A DNA stretch of 64,000 bases from an uncultured Bacteroidales bacterium (GTDB lineage Bacteria > Bacteroidota > Bacteroidia > Bacteroidales > CAYVNP01). Shown here one piece after another: positions 13,480 to 51,825 of this stretch. The DNA is taken from NCBI GenBank assembly GCA_964452905.1, contig CAYVNP010000001.1, positions 93,066-157,065 on the forward strand, given 5' to 3'. Every line of letters starts with the position of its first letter. Position 1 is the stretch's first letter. The translations under genes were made by a program, and so were the position numbers. The notes below the pieces were generated by a model, which worked only from the letters and a program-made list of their open reading frames with translations, was not told the DNA's origin and did no database searches.

Positions 13480-14046
13480 TTATATGAGAGTTAAAAGATT
13501 ATTTTTTGCGGGCACTGATTGAGCATTATTTATTTGAACTTCATATTCATTTGGGTCCAACAGAAGTCGAAGTTGTTCACGTGCTCTTTTAATTCTTGAC
13601 TTGACCCCCGAAAGAGTACCACCCTGTAACTGGCGTATCTCTTCAAGAGAAAACCCTGAAATTTCAAATAATACTATTGCTTCTCGCTGCTTGGAAGGTA
13701 ACTGGTTCAGCATCCTGTATAATATTTCCACATCATAACTTATTTCCGGAGAGTGTTCATGGTTTGTCAACTTTTCAGCATCCTTTTCGTTGAACTTTCC
13801 TATAAATTTACTTCTGCGAAAATAATGTAACTGCAACCTTCTTGCTACACCAAACAAATATGCTTTAAACGATTCAACCTTCCGAAGCTTTTCTAAATTT
13901 TCATAGACGATTAAAACAGTTTCACTTGCTAAATCTTGAGCATCGTCACGATTACCGGTCAGTCCACGACAATAACCTATAAATCCACTGTGACATGGAG
14001 TGTACAGTTCCATGAATCCTTCCTGTTTGTTTGTATTTAAATTCAA
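13480..14046 (-). CDS. RNA polymerase ECF-type sigma-70 family factor
   Basis: 188 aa. Region 2 is DAQDLASETVLIVYENL...FKAYLFGVARRL. Region 4 is LPSKQREAIVLFEISGFSLEEI...LSGVKSRIKRAREQL. Confidence 0.9.
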   Translation of the reverse strand: MNLNTNKQEGFMELYTPCHSGFIGYCRGLTGNRDDAQDLASETVLIVYENLEKLRKVESFKAYLFGVARRLQLHYFRRSKFIGKFNEKDAEKLTNHEHSPEISYDVEILYRMLNQLPSKQREAIVLFEISGFSLEEIRQLQGGTLSGVKSRIKRAREQLRLLLDPNEYEVQINNAQSVPAKNNLLTLI

Positions 14047-37264: not shown

Positions 37265-39268
37265 ATGAAAGAATTTATTGAACTCATCGTAAACAATGAA
37301 GACTGGCTGATGCAATGTGTATTGTATTATGCAAAGAAATTCAATTATGATGAATACATTTATACCCAGGAAGGTGCCTGGAGTATTTCTGTCAATGAAC
37401 TTTCCAATGCGTTGATCACAAAGGCATCCCAATCCGGAAAAGTTGTGCCCGAACTGAATCCTCATACAGAACCTGAGGATGATCCTTTATCTGTTTTCGG
37501 AAAAACGCTTGCAGCAAAACAAATCAGCGGAACAAACAGAATTTCCGTTTTACTTGGATTATTGAAATATTACCGCCAATCATTTATGGACCTTGTGGAA
37601 ACATCAATTATTGATGATCACAATAATAACCATTATAAATTATTCACAGAACGTTGTTTCGATACTATTGAAATTTCATTTTGTAATGAATGGCTGATAC
37701 TTTCAGGAGGGAAAAAACAAAAAAATATCATCCAGCCACAGACTTCAACATTCAGCAGCAACAATGTATATCATACCATCTTTGAAAATTCGTATACACC
37801 AATAGTTTTTCTGGACGAAAATAATAGAATCATAAATTACAATTTTGCCGCTGCAGAAATTTTTATTTCAGCAAATACTACTGATTCCTATCAAGAAAAT
37901 TCGCGCGAATCATTAAAACAACTTAATGAAAAATTACAGGAATTTATTCAAAAGGATTTTGATGAAAATATTATTGAAACAGAAATAGATACTGGTCAGG
38001 GGAAACGTTTTTTTCATGTTAAGCTGAAATCCATGCACACGGCAGAAGGGAAACAGAGCGGAACCATTGTGATGTTTGATGATATTACCCGACGCAAAGA
38101 AGCAGAAATGCAGCTTACACTTGCTAAAGAAAAAGCCGAAGAAGCTGATAAATTGAAAACTGCTTTTCTTGCCAACATGTCGCATGAGATCCGAACACCG
38201 ATGAATGCTATTTTAGGATTCTCCAAAATGCTGACCAAATCGGATACTCCTGAAGATAAACGGTCGCAATATATTGAAATCATTAAGAACAGTACCGATC
38301 AACTGCTTACCATCATCAATGATATTGTTGATATTTCGAAAATTGAAGCCCATCAGATCAAGATTGATGAAGGGTCAGTGGTCATGCTGAATGACCTAAT
38401 CGGTGAAATTCATTCTCTGTTCCGTCCAACAGCAGAATTGAACAATCTTAAACTAACCTATAGTCATGGCTTACCAGATATGCCCAGCAATATTTATGCT
38501 GATGGGGTGAGACTACGTCAAATATTAACCAACCTTTTGAGCAATGCACTCAAGTTCACCAGTCAGGGATATATTAAATTCGGATATATATTAAAAGATT
38601 CATTTCTTGAATTTTTTGTTGAGGATTCAGGCATCGGAATATCACAGGATAAACAAGAACTCATTTTTGAACGTTTTAGCCAGGCCGATCTGACGACCCC
38701 GAAACTATTTGGTGGTACAGGTCTTGGCTTATCGATTGCTAAAGCATTGATTGAGTTGCATGGAGGCAAAATATGGCTGAAATCTCAACCCGATAAAGGA
38801 TCCGTTTTTTATTTTACCATTCCTTATCGTCCGGTATACGCCAATAAAAATTTAAATGGGGAAGCAAAAAAAGAACCAAAAGAAAACAATTGGGATAACA
38901 TCACAATGATGATCGCAGAAGATGAAGAAATCAATTATCTGTTCTTAAAAGAATTTCTCTCTAAAACACATATTAATCTGATCAGAGCGCGTAATGGTCA
39001 TGAAGCGATTGAACTTTATAAACAACATTCAAATATCGATCTGATCTTAATGGATATTAAAATGCCTGTGAAAGACGGATATGAAGCTACCAAACAAATC
39101 AAGCTGATCAACCATGATGTTCCTATCATCGCTCAAACGGCCTATGTTTTTGAAGATGATAAAATCAGAATCTCACAATCCGGGTTTGATGATTACATAT
39201 CCAAACCCATCAATGAAATGAAACTGATCAATACCATTAAAAAATTTATCGAGAAAGTAAAGACTTAA
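37265..39268 (+). CDS. Hybrid sensor histidine kinase/response regulator (cytoplasmic)
   Basis: PAS-like segment, H-box FLANMSHEIRTPMNAILGF, HATPase N/G boxes, and a C-terminal REC domain (IAEDEEIN...LILMDIKMP). Confidence 0.92.
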   Translation: MKEFIELIVNNEDWLMQCVLYYAKKFNYDEYIYTQEGAWSISVNELSNALITKASQSGKVVPELNPHTEPEDDPLSVFGKTLAAKQISGTNRISVLLGLLKYYRQSFMDLVETSIIDDHNNNHYKLFTERCFDTIEISFCNEWLILSGGKKQKNIIQPQTSTFSSNNVYHTIFENSYTPIVFLDENNRIINYNFAAAEIFISANTTDSYQENSRESLKQLNEKLQEFIQKDFDENIIETEIDTGQGKRFFHVKLKSMHTAEGKQSGTIVMFDDITRRKEAEMQLTLAKEKAEEADKLKTAFLANMSHEIRTPMNAILGFSKMLTKSDTPEDKRSQYIEIIKNSTDQLLTIINDIVDISKIEAHQIKIDEGSVVMLNDLIGEIHSLFRPTAELNNLKLTYSHGLPDMPSNIYADGVRLRQILTNLLSNALKFTSQGYIKFGYILKDSFLEFFVEDSGIGISQDKQELIFERFSQADLTTPKLFGGTGLGLSIAKALIELHGGKIWLKSQPDKGSVFYFTIPYRPVYANKNLNGEAKKEPKENNWDNITMMIAEDEEINYLFLKEFLSKTHINLIRARNGHEAIELYKQHSNIDLILMDIKMPVKDGYEATKQIKLINHDVPIIAQTAYVFEDDKIRISQSGFDDYISKPINEMKLINTIKKFIEKVKT

Positions 39269-39848: not shown

Positions 39849-39987
39849 TAATTTTGCACGTACTATTATAAAAATTAAAAATGGACGAAGGCCCGGCGAT
39901 ATATAAATCATTAAACACTTTGATATAGAAGGGTGGCGCTTTATCTAACCTCCTTTCAGTATCAAGTTATAAAAAGAGGAGGTACCA
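39849..39987 (+). promoter_or_regulatory. Promoter box plus ~120-nt structured leader with alternative SD-sequestering pairing
   Basis: TAATTTTG box at 39849-39856. Purine boxes gaaggcccggcg (39887-39898) and gaagggtggcgc (39928-39939). Pyrimidine box aacctcctttc (39947-39957), which can pair either with the second purine box or with the SD agaggaggt (39975-39983). Confidence 0.45.
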
Positions 39988-41265
39988 ATGACTTTCCAGA
40001 AAACATTTTATTTAAGTAAGATTTTAGAAAAACGTCTTTATGATCCGCAAGGTCATTCAATTGGCAAGATCAAAGACGTTTTGATTGATCTTCATCCTTC
40101 GGGATCAGATGAGAATACTTCTCCAAAACCAAAAATTACCGGTTTGAAACTTAAATCCGCTGGTCAGATTCGTACTATTGCTTTTGACGAAGTGGAAATC
40201 ACCAAATTCAAAGGAGACTTCACGGTTAGTTGTAAAGAATTGATTGAACTGAGCGAAGAAAAAATTAATTCCGGACTATTCCTGAACGAAAATATTCTGG
40301 ATAAACAAATAGTTGATATTAACGGAAGAAAAGTAGTACGGGTGAATGATATTCGTTTGGTTATAGTTTCCAGCGGTGCTTATGTTATTGCAGTTGATGT
40401 GGGTATTGAAGGGCTATTACGCAGGATTGGCATTGCTAAATTTTTTCAGCGGTTATTTTCCTTATTCAGAGTTTCTATCCCATCCAAATTTATTTTATGG
40501 GATGATGTTGAAACCATTGATCATTCACGGCATAGTATTAAATTATCCAAAACATCTTCCAAACTTCATCGCTTGCATCCGTCGGATGTTGCGGATATCA
40601 TTGAAGAACTCGGACGTGCTTCCAAAACAACTGTATTTGCTACATTGGATGAAGAAAAAGCTGCCGATGTGCTTGAAGAGCTTGAACCGCATGTACAAGT
40701 GGATATCATTGAAAGTCTTCCTGTTCATAAGGCTGCTGACGTACTTGAAAAAATGCCTGCCAATGAAGCTGCCGATATTATTGATGAACTGGAAGATGAA
40801 AAAGCCGAACAATTGCTGAATGAGATGGAAGTTGAATCATCCGAAGAAGTCAGAGAGCTTTTAGAATATCCTGCTTATAAAGTGGGAAGTATTATGACTA
40901 CTGATTACCTTTCATTCCGGAATGACCAAACCGTAGAGGATGCACTTCAAATCATCCGTTCTCAAAAACCGGAAACAGATCTTTTATATAATTTGTTTAT
41001 TACCGATCAAAATGAAAAACTGATTGCTACTTTATCACTCAGGGATTTAGTGGTGTCTGAGCCGCAGGTTAAACTGGATCAGATCATGAAAAACAAACCG
41101 GTCAAGGTATATGATGACGATCGGATTGACTTACTCGCTGAAATAACCGAGAAATACAATTTGCTGGCAATACCGGTTATTGATCAAGAAGATTCATTGT
41201 TGGGGATGGTAGTCATCGATGATATTATTGAAGACCTTGTAAATAAAGGAAGAACCAATAAATAG
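39988..41265 (+). CDS. Soluble PRC-barrel + MgtE N-domain + CBS-pair protein (MgtE cytoplasmic sensor module without a membrane domain)
   Basis: 425 aa. It has acidic helical repeats (DVADIIEEL...AADVLEELEP...AADVLEKMP...AADIIDELEDEKAEQLLNEM) typical of MgtE_N, followed by two CBS motifs. No hydrophobic segments. Confidence 0.85.
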   Translation: MTFQKTFYLSKILEKRLYDPQGHSIGKIKDVLIDLHPSGSDENTSPKPKITGLKLKSAGQIRTIAFDEVEITKFKGDFTVSCKELIELSEEKINSGLFLNENILDKQIVDINGRKVVRVNDIRLVIVSSGAYVIAVDVGIEGLLRRIGIAKFFQRLFSLFRVSIPSKFILWDDVETIDHSRHSIKLSKTSSKLHRLHPSDVADIIEELGRASKTTVFATLDEEKAADVLEELEPHVQVDIIESLPVHKAADVLEKMPANEAADIIDELEDEKAEQLLNEMEVESSEEVRELLEYPAYKVGSIMTTDYLSFRNDQTVEDALQIIRSQKPETDLLYNLFITDQNEKLIATLSLRDLVVSEPQVKLDQIMKNKPVKVYDDDRIDLLAEITEKYNLLAIPVIDQEDSLLGMVVIDDIIEDLVNKGRTNK

Positions 41266-41277
41266 GAGGATTTTGCC

Positions 41278-42528
41278 ATGATGAATGCCAGAGTCAGAAG
41301 AAATTCTTTTTTACGGAATATCGCCTTATTCCTTGTAATCCTTGGTCCGGGTATTATTACCGGCAGTGTTGACAATGATGCCGGAGGGATCACCACCTAT
41401 TCTGTTGCCGGCGCCCGTTACGGGTATGGACTGATCTGGACGCTCATTCCTTCTTTTATCGTGCTGGTTATTATTCAGGAGATGAATGCACGAATGGGAA
41501 TCGTCACAGGCAAAGGACTTGCAGACCTGATCCGTGAAAAAGCAGGAGTAAAAGTGACATTTTTTATTTTTGTCGGTTTGCTGGTTGCTGACATTGGGAA
41601 TACAACTACCGAATTTGCCGGTGTCGCAGGCAGTATGGAAGTATTTAGTATTAATAAATATATTTCTGTACCTATCGTCTCAATGATGGTATGGTTACTG
41701 GTCGTAAAAGGAAATTATAAAATAGCTGAACGAATTTTTCTGATTTTCAGCGCTTCTTTATTGATGTATGTTATTTCAGCACTGATGGGTAAGCCACACT
41801 GGAAAGAGATCGGCTCTTCCATCATTCATCCGAAGATGGATATGAGTGCAAGCGGATTAGCCATGGTGATCGGTATCATCGGCACGACCATTGCTCCCTG
41901 GATGCAGTTTTATATGCAATCATCCGTCATCGAAAAAAGATTGAAAATGAGGAAATATAAATTTACACTGCTTGATGTTGTTGTCGGTTGTGTTGCTACC
42001 GTTGTCGTTGCGTTTTTTATTATTGTTGCCTGTGCGTCCACGTTGTATGAAAATCATATTACTATTAATGAAGCAAAGGATGCGGCGCTCGCTTTAAAGC
42101 CCCTGGCAGGCAATCTGTCATCACAAGTGTTTGCTTTCGGTTTGTTTGTTGCTTCTGTTTTTTCAGCCACCATACTACCTCTGGCAACCGCCTTCTATGT
42201 ATGCGAAGCATTCGGTTTTGAAGCAGGTATTGATAAAAAATGGGATGAAGCCCCTGAATTTTATTTTTTATATACAGGTATTTTAATTATTGCAGCAGGA
42301 ATTATTTTAATCCCCAATGCTCCGCTGATTGCTATTTCTCTGTGGTCTCAGGTCATCAATGGAATCCTGCTGCCGGTTGTACTTGTTTGTATGATCCTGC
42401 TGGTGAATGACAAAAAAATAATGGGTGAGCATGTCAATAAACCAATCAATAATATTATCGGCTGGTCAACGGTGATCATTCTGATTGGCTTATCCTCTAT
42501 GCTTTTATTCATGCCTTTCTTTTCTTAA
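41278..42528 (+). CDS. NRAMP-family divalent cation transporter with an NRMT-like (Mg2+-type) binding-site signature
   Basis: 416 aa with about 11 TM helices. TM1 reads VDNDAGGITTY where canonical NRAMP has DPGN. TM6 reads GTTIAPWMQFYMQS where canonical NRAMP has GAxxMPHNLYLHS. The SD aggagga (41264-41270) overlaps the upstream stop codon. Confidence 0.88.
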   Translation: MMNARVRRNSFLRNIALFLVILGPGIITGSVDNDAGGITTYSVAGARYGYGLIWTLIPSFIVLVIIQEMNARMGIVTGKGLADLIREKAGVKVTFFIFVGLLVADIGNTTTEFAGVAGSMEVFSINKYISVPIVSMMVWLLVVKGNYKIAERIFLIFSASLLMYVISALMGKPHWKEIGSSIIHPKMDMSASGLAMVIGIIGTTIAPWMQFYMQSSVIEKRLKMRKYKFTLLDVVVGCVATVVVAFFIIVACASTLYENHITINEAKDAALALKPLAGNLSSQVFAFGLFVASVFSATILPLATAFYVCEAFGFEAGIDKKWDEAPEFYFLYTGILIIAAGIILIPNAPLIAISLWSQVINGILLPVVLVCMILLVNDKKIMGEHVNKPINNIIGWSTVIILIGLSSMLLFMPFFS

Positions 42529-42618: not shown

Positions 42619-44124
42619 ATGAATCTATATGCCCAACGAAAACGATGGAACTGGTTCCTGTTGATTTTTGCAGCAGTGATTGTTATCATTTCATTATGGT
42701 ACACCAATAAACTGGTAAAGAACATTGCGCAGGAAGAAAGAAAAAAAGTCAAACTCTGGGCTGAAGCCATTCGCAGGAAAGCAGTGCTGGTCAAGTATAC
42801 AGATAGTCTTTTTGAAAAATTAAAAATTCAGGAACGTAAACGGGTTGAAATATGGGCAGAAGCCAACAAATATATTTTTACTGCCGGTCCTAATGAAGAC
42901 CTAACATTCTTTGTAAAAATTATTACCGACAACACGACCATTCCTGTTATTGTTACCAATCACAAAGGAGAAATTACCAATGCTGCTAATGTTGATTTTG
43001 ATTTAAAAAAAATCAAATTCTTTAATGATTCCCTCAAAAAACAATTTTCTGATTATCCTCCTTTTGTCATCAATTATTATGGAAATCTTAAGTTATTCCT
43101 GTATTATAAAGATTCAAAATTGTTTACTGATCTTCGTGAAGTAATGAATGATATTATCCGATCCTTTCTTTCGGAGATCATCAATTCAGCGTCGGTTCCT
43201 GTCCTTATAACGGACAGTACTCAACAACATGTGATTGCTTCAGGAAATGTTGATACAATCAGTTTTAAAGATCAGGCAGCGGTTATAAAAACAATCGCAT
43301 CTTTCCGTTCCGCTAATACACCGGTTGAAGTTGAACTTACCGGTAAAGTAAAAAGTTATATATTCTATAAAGATTCATATTTGCTCACACGGCTTAGGTA
43401 TTATCCATACGTACAATTTTTTATCATCGGACTTTTTTTACTGATCGCCTATCTGATGTTCAGCACCACACGAAAAGCCGAACAAAACCAGGTGTGGATG
43501 GGAATGGCAAAAGAAACGGCACACCAGTTAGGTACACCCTTATCATCCTTAATGGCATGGATGGAAATACTGAAAATGAAACAAGGCGATAATGAAACCA
43601 CGGAGGAACTCAAAAAAGATATTGATCGACTTGAAACTATTGCCGAACGATTTTCTAAAATTGGTTCACCTCCCAAACTGGAAAAAGAAAATATTGTAAA
43701 AATACTCTATCGCTCAATCGAATACCTTAAATCAAGAACATCAAAGAATGTAATCTATTCGATCAATACACCGGAGAGTGTTGAAATATGGATTCCTTTG
43801 AATGCACGTTTATTTGAATGGGTGATTGAAAACATATGTAAAAATGCCGTTGATGCCATGGCAGGCAAAGGTTATCTTACGATTCAACTGGGTGAAGAAG
43901 GAAAAAATATTTTTATAGATATCTCCAATACGGGAAAAGCTATTCCTAAATCTAAATTCAAAACCATATTTCACCCGGGATATACAACTAAACAGAGTGG
44001 CTGGGGACTCGGTCTGTCTCTTGCCAGAAGGATTATTGAAGAAGTACATAAAGGAAAAATATTTGTTAAAAAATCTATTCCGGATAAAGAAACTACATTT
44101 AGAATTATATTAAAAAAATTATAA
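42619..44124 (+). CDS. Membrane sensor histidine kinase (no adjacent response regulator)
   Basis: 501 aa with two TM helices flanking a ~230-aa periplasmic domain, the H-box AHQLGTPLSSLMAWMEIL, and HATPase motifs. Confidence 0.88.
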   Translation: MNLYAQRKRWNWFLLIFAAVIVIISLWYTNKLVKNIAQEERKKVKLWAEAIRRKAVLVKYTDSLFEKLKIQERKRVEIWAEANKYIFTAGPNEDLTFFVKIITDNTTIPVIVTNHKGEITNAANVDFDLKKIKFFNDSLKKQFSDYPPFVINYYGNLKLFLYYKDSKLFTDLREVMNDIIRSFLSEIINSASVPVLITDSTQQHVIASGNVDTISFKDQAAVIKTIASFRSANTPVEVELTGKVKSYIFYKDSYLLTRLRYYPYVQFFIIGLFLLIAYLMFSTTRKAEQNQVWMGMAKETAHQLGTPLSSLMAWMEILKMKQGDNETTEELKKDIDRLETIAERFSKIGSPPKLEKENIVKILYRSIEYLKSRTSKNVIYSINTPESVEIWIPLNARLFEWVIENICKNAVDAMAGKGYLTIQLGEEGKNIFIDISNTGKAIPKSKFKTIFHPGYTTKQSGWGLGLSLARRIIEEVHKGKIFVKKSIPDKETTFRIILKKL

Positions 44125-45703: not shown

Positions 45704-45787
45704 GCCCGAATGGCGGAATTGGTAGACGCGCTGGTCTCAAAAACCTGTGAGTGCAAGCTCGTGCCGGTTCAACTCCGGCTTCGGGTA
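45704..45787 (+). tRNA. tRNA-Leu (anticodon CAA), type II with a long variable arm
   Basis: Folded by hand. Acceptor stem GCCCGAA/TTCGGGT (G1-U72 wobble). D-loop AATTGGTAG. Anticodon loop CTCAAAA. Long variable arm. T-arm GCCGG TTCAACT CCGGC. Discriminator A. CCA is not encoded. Confidence 0.9.
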
Positions 45788-47462: not shown

Positions 47463-47475
47463 TTAAAATAAAAAG

Positions 47476-47491
47476 TAGTTTCCGGAAACTA
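47476..47491. promoter_or_regulatory. Perfect 16-bp palindrome tagtttccggaaacta (candidate operator or 5' hairpin)
   Basis: It is exactly self-complementary and starts 14 nt after the promoter box. Confidence 0.4.
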
Positions 47492-47550
47492 TTAAAACCC
47501 GGGGCGTAACCGAAAAGCCGTAAGAGTAGGAAAAACTAAAATGAAAAAGT

Positions 47551-48804
47551 ATGAAAAAAATTTACCTTTTAATGATGGTATTGTCTTTTGCATTTATAAG
47601 TTCACTTAAAACACATGGTCAAAATATTAACATCCCGGATCCGATTTTCAAATCAATTCTGGTAAACAACCCATCCATTAATACAAATCAGGATGGGGAA
47701 ATTCAAGAATTCGAAGCTCAGGTATATACCGGCTCCATTTTTGTTGATGCTGCCGGTATAACCGACCTTACAGGCATCAACACTTTTGCGTCATTAACTG
47801 AGCTAAGCTGTTACGGTAATGAACTGACCAACCTTAATGTTCATTATTGCACAGCTATCACCACATTGAACTGCAGTGGAAACCATCTCACTTCATTGGC
47901 TCTTCCGGGCAGCACATCATTGGTCTCACTAAATTGTCATAGCAATCAGCTTACGGGTCTTGAACTCAATTCTTATGTCAACCTCCAAACCCTGAATTGT
48001 CGCAACAATTCACTTACAAATCTTTCACTTCCAATATCACTTGTTAATTTGATATGTGATTATAACCAGTTGACCTCACTTTCTTTTTATGGAAACATGA
48101 GTCTTAAAACACTTTCTTGCAACAACAACCAACTTACTAGTTTATTTTTAGGTAATACTCCTTTGAATAATCTGAACTGTTCAGTTAACCAATTAACATC
48201 TCTCGACCTTTCCGACCTTAATGGGTCATCTATTATTATTTCTTGTTCACAAAATCAACTTACAAGTCTATTGCTGGGTACAGCAAGTATAACTTCATTA
48301 ATTTGCAGTGTAAATAAATTGACAGACCTTGATATATCAGGCACCCCTGCCACAGCTCTTGATTGCAGCCAGAATCAGCTTCTATCTTTGAATGCTCAAA
48401 ACGGTATGAATTATAGCTTTGCTTCATTCTATTCAACCTCCAATCCAAACCTTCAGTGCATCCAAGTTGACGATCCTACATGGTCATCAACCTACTGGAC
48501 TCATATTGACAATGGAACATTTTTCAGTGATAATTGCCTTACCGGACTACAAGACAAACAAGCAAGTCGTGATGTTTCTGTTACAGTTTATCCGAACCCG
48601 GGACAGGGAATTTTTACTATTGCATCTGAGCACAATTTTTCGACTCTCAAATTATTCAACTCATTTGGACAGCTTGTCTTGAGCAACGAGACAATCCCGG
48701 AAATCACGACCATAGATTTAAGTCACCACAGTCAGGGTATATATAATTTGATTCTCAGTGACGAAAAAGGATTCACTTACTCAAGAAAAATTGTCATTGA
48801 ATAA
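47551..48804 (+). CDS. Leucine-rich repeat protein with T9SS type A C-terminal sorting domain
   Basis: 417 aa with a signal peptide and about 11 LRR units (LTSLxL...LxxLxCxxNQ). The C-terminus is VTVYPNPGQGIFTI...GIYNLILSDEKGFTYSRKIVIE. Confidence 0.88.
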   Translation: MKKIYLLMMVLSFAFISSLKTHGQNINIPDPIFKSILVNNPSINTNQDGEIQEFEAQVYTGSIFVDAAGITDLTGINTFASLTELSCYGNELTNLNVHYCTAITTLNCSGNHLTSLALPGSTSLVSLNCHSNQLTGLELNSYVNLQTLNCRNNSLTNLSLPISLVNLICDYNQLTSLSFYGNMSLKTLSCNNNQLTSLFLGNTPLNNLNCSVNQLTSLDLSDLNGSSIIISCSQNQLTSLLLGTASITSLICSVNKLTDLDISGTPATALDCSQNQLLSLNAQNGMNYSFASFYSTSNPNLQCIQVDDPTWSSTYWTHIDNGTFFSDNCLTGLQDKQASRDVSVTVYPNPGQGIFTIASEHNFSTLKLFNSFGQLVLSNETIPEITTIDLSHHSQGIYNLILSDEKGFTYSRKIVIE

Positions 48805-51426: not shown

Positions 51427-51825
51427 GTTTTTATGATGAAATTATTTAATAACGTATTACAGATTCACGATTATGAAATTTTTTATTAAAATTCTGTTCT
51501 GCAGGTATTAATGTCATCTTGTCCTAAATTTATTGGGTTGGAGTTGGTAACTTCATTAATATTCGACACTTAATCGGTGATTTAATTGTTCATCTCTTAC
51601 ATACTCACCTGAAAGGCTCATGTCCTCCCTTCCTCCCTGTCCAATCAATACCACCCGCATTGCCGAAAAACACCGCAGGTTGGTTTTAGACCCACTCCTG
51701 ATTGTTGTTCTGATAGTCCCTGTTTTTTCGTCTTCTTTCTATTTTTGTACTATCATCCTGGCAATAGTTACGAACTTTCAGCATTTGGGTTGTGTTACAC
51801 AATTGTTGCTCTCTCGTGGCACACA

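Follow-up and report, generated by a model that had tools for sequence, protein, structure and literature searches.

The window analysed here, a stretch of 64,000 nucleotides (nt) from an uncultured Bacteroidales bacterium (contig CAYVNP010000001.1, positions 93,066 to 157,065), contains a two-gene magnesium-importer operon whose 5' leader carries a short upstream open reading frame (uORF), a purine strand, a pyrimidine strand and the Shine-Dalgarno (SD) sequence of the first gene, in that order. This leader is interpreted as a translational attenuator of the operon in which the uORF peptide would serve as Mg2+ reporter (probability about 0.6). The architecture, a uORF coupled to an SD switch, is probable on comparative grounds; that Mg2+ is the signal and acts through ribosome fragility is proposed by analogy, at even odds. 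Architecture, conservation and gene content were read from the sequences and their comparison, and the behaviour of the peptide during translation and the identity of the signal are proposed from them. Control of a Mg2+ importer by an acidic, proline-containing leader peptide and alternative RNA folds is already known in Enterobacteria; what is new is the family of peptides, an output by translation through an SD switch, the lineage in which it occurs and the target, a transporter of the NRMT type. A previous reading made from the letters alone (the sequence-only reading) had proposed a cis-regulatory, SD-occluding leader for a cation-transport pair, possibly metal-sensing; this part is retained, and its suggestion of a riboswitch or RNA thermometer is not. 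Taken alone the leader is unremarkable (fold z-scores of the window sequence -0.83 and -1.63, no better than shuffled), so the case for it rests on comparison with other sequences.

Conservation of the leader and of its upstream open reading frame

Orthologous loci were collected by protein search and genome scan with alignment of the homologs. The 79 loci are mostly from Bacteroidales metagenome-assembled genomes (MAGs), with a few from Chitinophagaceae, the FCB group and Firmicutes and one from a Spirochaete. Side-by-side comparison of the upstream regions revealed a very conserved block, AATGGACGAnGnnCCnGCG, with an ATG at its start, approximately 100-125 nt upstream of the main ATG; the leader with its uORF was found in 66 of these protein-selected loci. 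An exact-pattern scan of metagenome contigs for the 19-nt uORF box gave 120 matches: 52 have an ortholog of gene 1 98-126 nt downstream, two more are truncated leaders, and the others lie mostly in GC-rich sequence, which is the chance expectation for a GC-rich pattern. In all, over 110 leaders in several phyla keep the element. From a 22-sequence seed and the ON structure (described below) a covariance model was built that recovers 82 leaders, the window copy included (39878-39993, 50.1 bits, E = 4e-10).

The promoter box and the three complementary boxes of the sequence-only reading all recur in these leaders, upstream of orthologous operons. Of 113 leaders, 77 have an exact TAnnTTTG whose distance to the uORF ATG is 20-30 nt (mode 26), and most of the remaining ones have a near-match at this place; the gap in the window is 24 nt. 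This spacing makes the uORF the first feature of the transcript.

The window uORF has 15 codons, MDEGPAIYKSLNTLI, and its TAG overlaps the first base of the gaagggtgg box. In the 66 loci the start follows the consensus M-D-[D/E]-[G/D/Y/V]-P-[A/G/D] and the reading frame is 9-30 codons long; its first six codons are the most conserved part of the leader, and the ATG is invariant. The element gaaggcccggcg (39887-39898), correctly located before and then labelled a second purine box, corresponds to codons 3-6 of this uORF. Two Chitinophagaceae MAGs (L012, L018) carry a variant, M-D-E-[S/G]-E-P..., in which the proline has moved by one codon; their main open reading frame (ORF) apparently starts with TTG.

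Several properties bear on translation of the uORF. Between codon 2 and 6 nt before the purine strand, its frame contains no stops in 671 codons (80 leaders), versus 53/657 and 22/647 in the other two frames of the same region. Codons 3-5 vary synonymously or conservatively (GAC/GAT/GAA, GGC/GGA/GGG/GAC and CCT/CCG/CCC), with Pro5 retained in 58 of 62 leaders. A purine-rich SD lies 6-10 nt before the uORF ATG in all four non-Bacteroidota copies (Firmicutes, Spirochaete) and in none of the 62 Bacteroidota copies, which have instead the A-rich context usual for Bacteroidota; A-rich initiation contexts have been reported (PMC7366714). We infer from the comparison that the uORF looks translated. 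All other M-D-D/E uORFs in the window lie inside coding regions; only the one at 39881 lies in a leader.

Two codons are fixed at the nucleotide level, GAC for Asp2 (59 of 60 leaders; 39884-39886 in the window) and GCG for Ala6 (48 of 49; 39896-39898); adjoining ORFs use these codons at 29% and 9%, respectively. No pairing partner that would explain the fixation was found. It could reflect slow decoding or a role at the RNA level.

Mutually exclusive helices and the Shine-Dalgarno sequence

The promoter box, the pyrimidine box acctcctttc (39948-39957), the purine box gaagggtgg (39928-39936) and the SD agaggaggt, separated by the four nucleotides acca from the ATG of gene 1, are all located as first described. 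Four segments are distinguished below: the uORF start (1), the purine strand (2), the pyrimidine strand (3) and the SD (4). In the minimum-free-energy fold of the window leader the anti-SD (39948-39956) pairs with the SD through nine base pairs, eight Watson-Crick and one G-U; once the first 28 nt of the uORF are masked, segment 2 pairs instead with 39949-39966. The helix of purine and pyrimidine strands, enclosing a small hairpin, is termed ON, that of pyrimidine strand and SD is termed OFF; both were defined from single-sequence folds.

The earlier suggestion that one pyrimidine box takes part in two mutually exclusive pairings is backed by covariation in both helices. Pair statistics were obtained on 80 distinct leaders with shuffled and slid pairings as controls, and on the 22-sequence seed alignment both helices also exceed these controls. 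For the ON helix 77% of cells are paired (slid 28-53%), the covariation score is 0.38 (slid at most 0.08), and double-sided changes occur in 19 of 19 pairs; for the OFF helix 76.7% of cells are paired (slid 48-55%), the score is 0.179 (slid at most 0.098), and double-sided changes occur in 12 of 15 pairs. Both sets of counts come from the same alignment, which was fitted to the ON structure and not to OFF; because of that fitting and the relatedness of the sequences, the numbers are supportive, not formal proof. Pairing of segment 1 with segment 2 reaches 61% of cells (slid 35-45%). Pairing of the uORF box with the inner hairpin or segment 2 was also considered; it showed no significant covariation and was retained only as a weak contributor.

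When 62 leaders were simply aligned with MAFFT, RNAalifold gave practically no structure, because the middle part is variable and misaligned and the competing folds cancel each other; this approach was replaced by the seed alignment, the covariance model and explicit pair counts. That the complementary boxes are a chance resemblance in an AT-rich intergenic region, with no regulatory role, would agree with the unremarkable z-scores of the window alone, but is hardly credible: it is already contradicted by the covariation and the fixed geometry of an element shared by over 110 leaders in several phyla.

The uORF is positioned relative to these helices. Relative to the first nucleotide of segment 2, its stop is found at -6 to +39 nt (median +7) in 75 of 75 leaders, even though uORF length spans a three-fold range (9 to 30 codons). 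With the stop tied to segment 2, a terminating ribosome must cover or unwind the purine strand. Consequences for the SD were modelled as the free-energy cost of opening the SD region, with the ribosome footprint masked, in the 66 protein-selected leaders; for one of them (L068) the uORF start was misplaced onto the uORF's SD. The unpaired probability of the SD core was abandoned in favour of this cost, since the core also pairs with the opening codons of the main ORF, which confounds that measure. Median costs are 7.3 kcal/mol for naked RNA (upstream-shuffled control 10.3), 3.6 kcal/mol with a ribosome on uORF codons 1 to approximately 9 (control 10.8) and 10.1 kcal/mol with a ribosome at the uORF stop (control 11.2). 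As isolated hairpins in the window, ON (39919-39966) is predicted at -14.6 and OFF (39948-39983) at -11.2 kcal/mol; OFF wins overall only because the 5' domain with the uORF start (-13.4 kcal/mol) also forms.

The conserved output is a hairpin that sequesters the SD and leaves 4 nt between its end and the ATG, which points to control at translation initiation. Pairing energies to the canonical 16S tail, a generic sequence and not that of this organism, were calculated for the 39 non-overlapping ORFs of at least 120 amino acids in the window. SD rarity, as first described, is borne out: the two operon genes pair best (gene 1, -13.7 kcal/mol; gene 2, -10.2 kcal/mol), whereas the majority of the ORFs do not reach -3 kcal/mol. 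The sole other fairly strong SD-like element near a start (caggaaggattc, -9.6 kcal/mol) lies at 14014-14035 on the minus strand, upstream of the ORF at 13480-14013. The SD-like aggagga noted 7 nt before the ATG of gene 2 is present and is not conserved: the orthologs have a median of -6.6 kcal/mol, and approximately 40% reach -8 or better.

The SD of gene 1 has a different record. Of the 62 orthologous leaders from Bacteroidota, 56 have GGAGG, which is spaced 5 nt from the ATG in 46; in 30 of the 62, complementarity to the canonical 16S tail is longer, 9-13 nt. It remains GGAGG where the cis partner shifts register (L008, L055), and a conserved U-G pair at one position (UG in 38, CG in 21) weakens the cis pairing; because of this pair the SD complements the canonical tail better than its own anti-SD. 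This suggests that the SD is under constraint in trans, i.e. a working SD.

Sequestration of the 16S tail by bS21, bS18 and bS6 is reported to make Bacteroidia ribosomes blind to SDs, and rpsU is the one gene of Flavobacterium johnsoniae with an extended SD (PMC7797042, PMC9976891, PMC13000453). The SD itself might therefore be the key, with the operon translated only by special ribosomes, e.g. those without bS21 as for Flavobacterium rpsU, and with the uORF and helices secondary. The fixed GGAGG and its spacing, the extended tail match, the retention of GGAGG opposite a shifted cis partner and the bS21-dependent control of rpsU by extended SDs (PMC9976891) agree with such a role. It is very improbable as the whole explanation: no Bacteroidales qualified for rpsU autoregulation in the same survey (PMC9976891), the 16S tail used here is not that of this organism, and the conserved uORF, the stop geometry and the covarying ON helix are left unexplained. 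Special ribosomes are moreover compatible with an attenuator rather than exclusive of it.

The operon and its link to magnesium

Gene 1 encodes a soluble protein that matches the cytosolic domains of MgtE in the PDB, the crystallised Mg2+-sensing part, with E = 2.7e-33; by homology it is related to the Mg2+-sensing cytoplasmic part of MgtE. The best PDB match of gene 2, by far, is EleNRMT of Eggerthella lenta (7qia; E = 3.7e-108, versus approximately 1e-26 for MntH). Gene 2 carries the NRMT site signature, D..G in helix 1 (NDAGG) and T-I-A-P-W in helix 6 (GTTIAPW); in NRMTs the Asp is kept, Asn is replaced by Gly in helix 1, Ala by Thr and Met by Ala in helix 6, and His by Trp (PMC8806188). 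Exactly this pair of genes, coding for NrmT and for a stand-alone protein with the MgtE cytoplasmic domain, was described by Shin et al. 2014, who showed Mg2+ transport and found M-box riboswitches before some members (PMC4072509). The operon is thus, as judged from homology, a magnesium importer and not a Mn2+ system. The guess of a metal signal made in the sequence-only reading accordingly fits, the M-box regulating the same operon in Firmicutes; a Mn2+ transporter of the NRAMP family does not, the protein being of NRMT type.

In Firmicutes the M-box lies directly upstream of the orthologous operon in two loci that have no uORF (L057, L077). In two others (L064, 702-1075; L068, 2578-2991) an M-box with terminator hairpin is followed by the same uORF leader, with the boxes TGGAGGGA / TCCCTCCA / TGGAGGGA and the purine box within the 3' end of the uORF. 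These would be two Mg2+-related controls in series, one transcriptional and one translational.

The leader could itself be a riboswitch or another direct metal-sensing RNA, the 5' box and helices binding Mg2+ or another ligand without translation and the ORF being incidental. GAC and GCG are fixed more strictly than the peptide requires, the same operon is under an RNA Mg2+ sensor in Firmicutes, and SD occlusion is the typical riboswitch platform. No match to the leader was obtained with Rfam 15 (4227 models, including M-box, yybP-ykoY, NiCo and the thermometers) at the gathering threshold or at E <= 10, only chance-level scores, and the corA leaders described below likewise gave none. The M-box model RF00380, without match in the window at either cutoff, scores 97-111 bits in the Firmicutes orthologs and so works as a control. 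The region between the uORF box and segment 2 varies in sequence and length and shows no conserved multi-helix aptamer; the sole strongly conserved block is the start of a short ORF, and we find no evidence for the aptamer or RNA thermometer first suggested. A riboswitch is further opposed by the stop-free frame next to two frames with stops, by the gain of an SD before the uORF exactly in SD-using phyla, by the stop codon tied to segment 2 and by the lack of covariation in pairings of the box with downstream RNA; in L064 and L068 a second RNA Mg2+ sensor would be redundant. On balance direct sensing by the RNA is improbable.

The attenuator reading gains a second gene family from corA. The covariance model finds second, divergently oriented copies (L113, 2241-2340, and L087, 3456-3545, both on the minus strand) whose downstream genes encode CorA; in both loci the corA leader is divergent from the nrmT-operon leader. 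Together with CorA homologs in 12 further contigs, 14 corA loci were compared. A sister leader is present in 12 of the 14 Bacteroidota corA loci, all 12 apparently of Bacteroidales type (loci with it include L200-L207, L212 and L214-L217, upstream of position 801 or 601). Its order is promoter box, uORF MDDY[H/Y/P]... (mostly exactly eight codons), AGAGG / CCTCT / GGAGG and ATG. Both GAC and GAT are used for the two Asp residues of these uORFs, an argument for selection at the level of the peptide. A Flavobacterium corA (L209, 716-800) has a related uORF, MNDYYSGMFN, at the same distance, with no SD and no obvious purine or pyrimidine boxes; in this order, which has almost no SDs, the device may exist in a form that works without one. 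A Chlorobiaceae corA has neither uORF nor SD.

In E. coli and Salmonella, ribosomes become unstable or pause on N-terminal stretches rich in Asp, Glu and Pro, above all when small residues are present and the exit tunnel is still empty; this pausing or abortion is stronger at low Mg2+, MgtL (MEPDPT...) thereby switches on mgtA, and corL/corA behave similarly (bioRxiv 10.1101/2021.02.02.429294, PMC11552253, PMC11282234). The ABC-F protein EttA modulates the MgtL-type effect (PMC11282234). The uORF consensus fits this rule of Asp/Glu or Pro plus small residues (bioRxiv 10.1101/2021.02.02.429294).

The same uORF-driven SD switch might report something else: charging of Asp, Pro or Ala tRNA, decoding of rare codons, the status of EF-P or of an EttA-like ABC-F protein and hence the ATP/ADP ratio, or general translation capacity. 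MgtL also responds to proline limitation and to EttA, early acidic residues make E. coli translation EttA-dependent (both PMC11282234), and the rare codons GCG and CCG are fixed in the uORF. Such a signal is nevertheless unlikely, the regulated genes found so far all serving Mg2+ import and belonging to two families without relationship to each other (NRMT, accompanied by the MgtE-like protein; CorA); the leader also replaces or accompanies the M-box in orthologous operons, and no gene of amino-acid biosynthesis or transport has the leader among the loci examined.

Proposed mechanism, feature table and comparison with known systems

In the mechanism that we propose, the Bacteroidota promoter would start an mRNA on which the uORF comes first, followed by the other segments. 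Pairing of 3 with 2 would leave the SD free (ON), and pairing of 3 with 4 would hide it (OFF). A ribosome completing the uORF would occupy segment 2, so that segment 3 closes on the SD; one that pauses or dissociates early in the uORF, on M-D-E-G-P-A, would never reach segment 2, allowing 2:3 to form, and while paused it would additionally block the 1:2 pairing. For naked RNA the prediction is a mostly OFF state. At sufficient Mg2+ the uORF would be finished, the purine strand occluded and the SD closed; at low Mg2+, pausing or drop-off at codons 2-6 would open the SD, and NRMT and its MgtE-like sensor subunit would be made. The acidic, small and proline residues of the N-terminus would make early elongation fragile at low free Mg2+, as in MgtL, and the rare fixed codons 2 and 6 (GAC, GCG) may, speculatively, lengthen the vulnerable step.

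Several points weigh against this mechanism. Bacteroidia ribosomes are reported not to use SDs (PMC7797042, PMC9976891), which leaves the effect of exposing one unexplained. Covariation in segment 1:2 is not above shuffles (59/500), its predicted partners are diffuse, and shuffling just the first 31 nt lowers the naked SD-opening cost by only approximately 1.5 kcal/mol, a small contribution; because this pairing is weak, the active event may be either pausing, as in ermC, or drop-off, as in MgtL. Relatedness of the sequences inflates significance derived from shuffling. The sister uORFs of corA keep M-D-D, often without proline (MDDYH...), and the fixation of GAC and GCG beyond the need of the peptide could mean an RNA-level role for the box. 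The peptide is only analogous, not homologous, to MgtL, and it is by analogy and comparison that we infer that the uORF is translated, that ribosomes stall or drop off on it and that Mg2+ is what the leader responds to.

If the mechanism is correct, Mg2+ sensing by destabilising peptides (mgtL and corL of enterobacteria) would extend to Bacteroidales, some Firmicutes and Spirochaetes, with an independent peptide family and a translational output, and the missing regulator of NRMT-type importers without an M-box would be supplied. It would also provide a concrete, conserved SD that appears to matter in a lineage called SD-blind; when Bacteroidia ribosomes use their anti-SD would become directly testable with one small reporter, and the leader would be a compact Mg2+-responsive expression part for gut Bacteroidales. 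More speculative, and a long shot, is a lineage-wide 'M-D-D' leader-peptide regulon for Mg2+ importers in Bacteroidales (NRMT operon, CorA, perhaps others), in which fragility on a chain of five or six residues is read by an SD switch and the SD is functional on ribosomes that normally hide their anti-SD. Low Mg2+ or a bS21-poor pool would then unmask the 16S tail, and the ribosome would be both sensor and specialised decoder.

The features of the locus are collected in Table 1.

Table 1 Features of the leader and operon in the window. Energies are pairing energies to the canonical 16S tail.
Feature	Position	Strand	Basis
Bacteroidota-type -7 promoter box TAATTTTG (TAnnTTTG)	39849..39856	+	sequence; recurs in leaders
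uORF (putative leader peptide) MDEGPAIYKSLNTLI, stop TAG 39926-39928	39881..39928	+	comparison, frame, synonymous variation
Conserved box ATGGACGAnGnnCCnGCG, uORF codons 1-6	39881-39898	+	comparison of loci
Segment 2, anti-anti-SD purine strand tttgatatagaagggtgg, overlaps uORF stop	39919..39936	+	folds, covariation
Segment 3, shared pyrimidine strand (acctcctttc + agtatcaag)	39948..39966	+	folds, pair counts
Segment 4, main-ORF SD agaggaggt	39975..39983	+	-13.7 kcal/mol, strongest in window
Gene 1, soluble protein with PRC-barrel, MgtE_N and CBS domains	39988..41265	+	Pfam domains
SD-like aggagga before gene 2	41264..41270	+	-10.2 kcal/mol
Gene 2, NRAMP-related Mg2+ transporter, NRMT/NrmT type	41278..42528	+	Pfam Nramp, PDB match

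The operon is flanked by a gene for a hybrid histidine kinase/response regulator (37265-39268) and by a second histidine kinase gene (42619-44124). Other RNA features of the window are a tRNA gene at 45704-45787 (+) (Rfam RF00005, 53 bits); the DUF805 RNA motif RF03081 at 47470-47536 (+), above its gathering threshold with 54.2 bits and just upstream of an ORF at 47551-48804; and a match to the group II intron domain model D1-D4-2 (RF01999) at 51607-51723 (-), barely over the gathering threshold with 38.3 bits.

A full-text literature search, of incomplete coverage so that an earlier description is possible, returned no leader peptide for NrmT or for Bacteroidales corA/nrmT. Among known systems, mgtL-mgtA and corL-corA of Salmonella and E. 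coli likewise place a short uORF ahead of genes for Mg2+ importers, within the 5' leader, and corA is a target in both systems. MgtL has a similar acidic, proline-rich N-terminus (MEPDPT; here MD[D/E]xPA); efficient translation of the uORF is predicted here too to repress the transporter, the ribosome selecting between two exclusive folds, which in the present case are computational. Differences are the lack of sequence homology with the window peptide, the output (Rho-dependent transcription termination there; SD sequestration, i.e. initiation, here) and the lineage (Enterobacteria there; Bacteroidales and some Firmicutes and Spirochaetes here), with NRMT plus an MgtE-like protein as a new target and with a Mg2+ dependence that is proposed here.

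Attenuation of trp and ermC follows the same four-segment logic; here the fourth segment is the SD. As in ermC and cat, 1:2 plus 3:4 would hide the SD, and a ribosome held early would free 2 for 3 and expose it; the window energies follow the same scheme (2:3, -14.6; 3:4, -11.2 kcal/mol), OFF being favoured only with the 5' domain. The inducer of ermC and cat, unlike that proposed here, is an antibiotic that binds in the exit tunnel and acts on a nascent peptide of greater length. In the present leader the residues that matter would be those of codons 2-6, too short to fill the tunnel, and 1:2 is weakly supported. The M-box (ykoK, RF00380) controls the orthologous NRMT/MgtE-domain operon in Firmicutes, presumably in response to the same physiological signal, but is a 160-nt Mg2+-binding aptamer that acts through a terminator and is without match in the window. 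The extended SD of Flavobacteriales rpsU is likewise a rare, conserved, often extended SD in a generally SD-lacking lineage; it belongs to a different gene class, for which neither a uORF nor an anti-SD switch has been described, and the surveyed Bacteroidales fall outside the rpsU criteria (PMC9976891).

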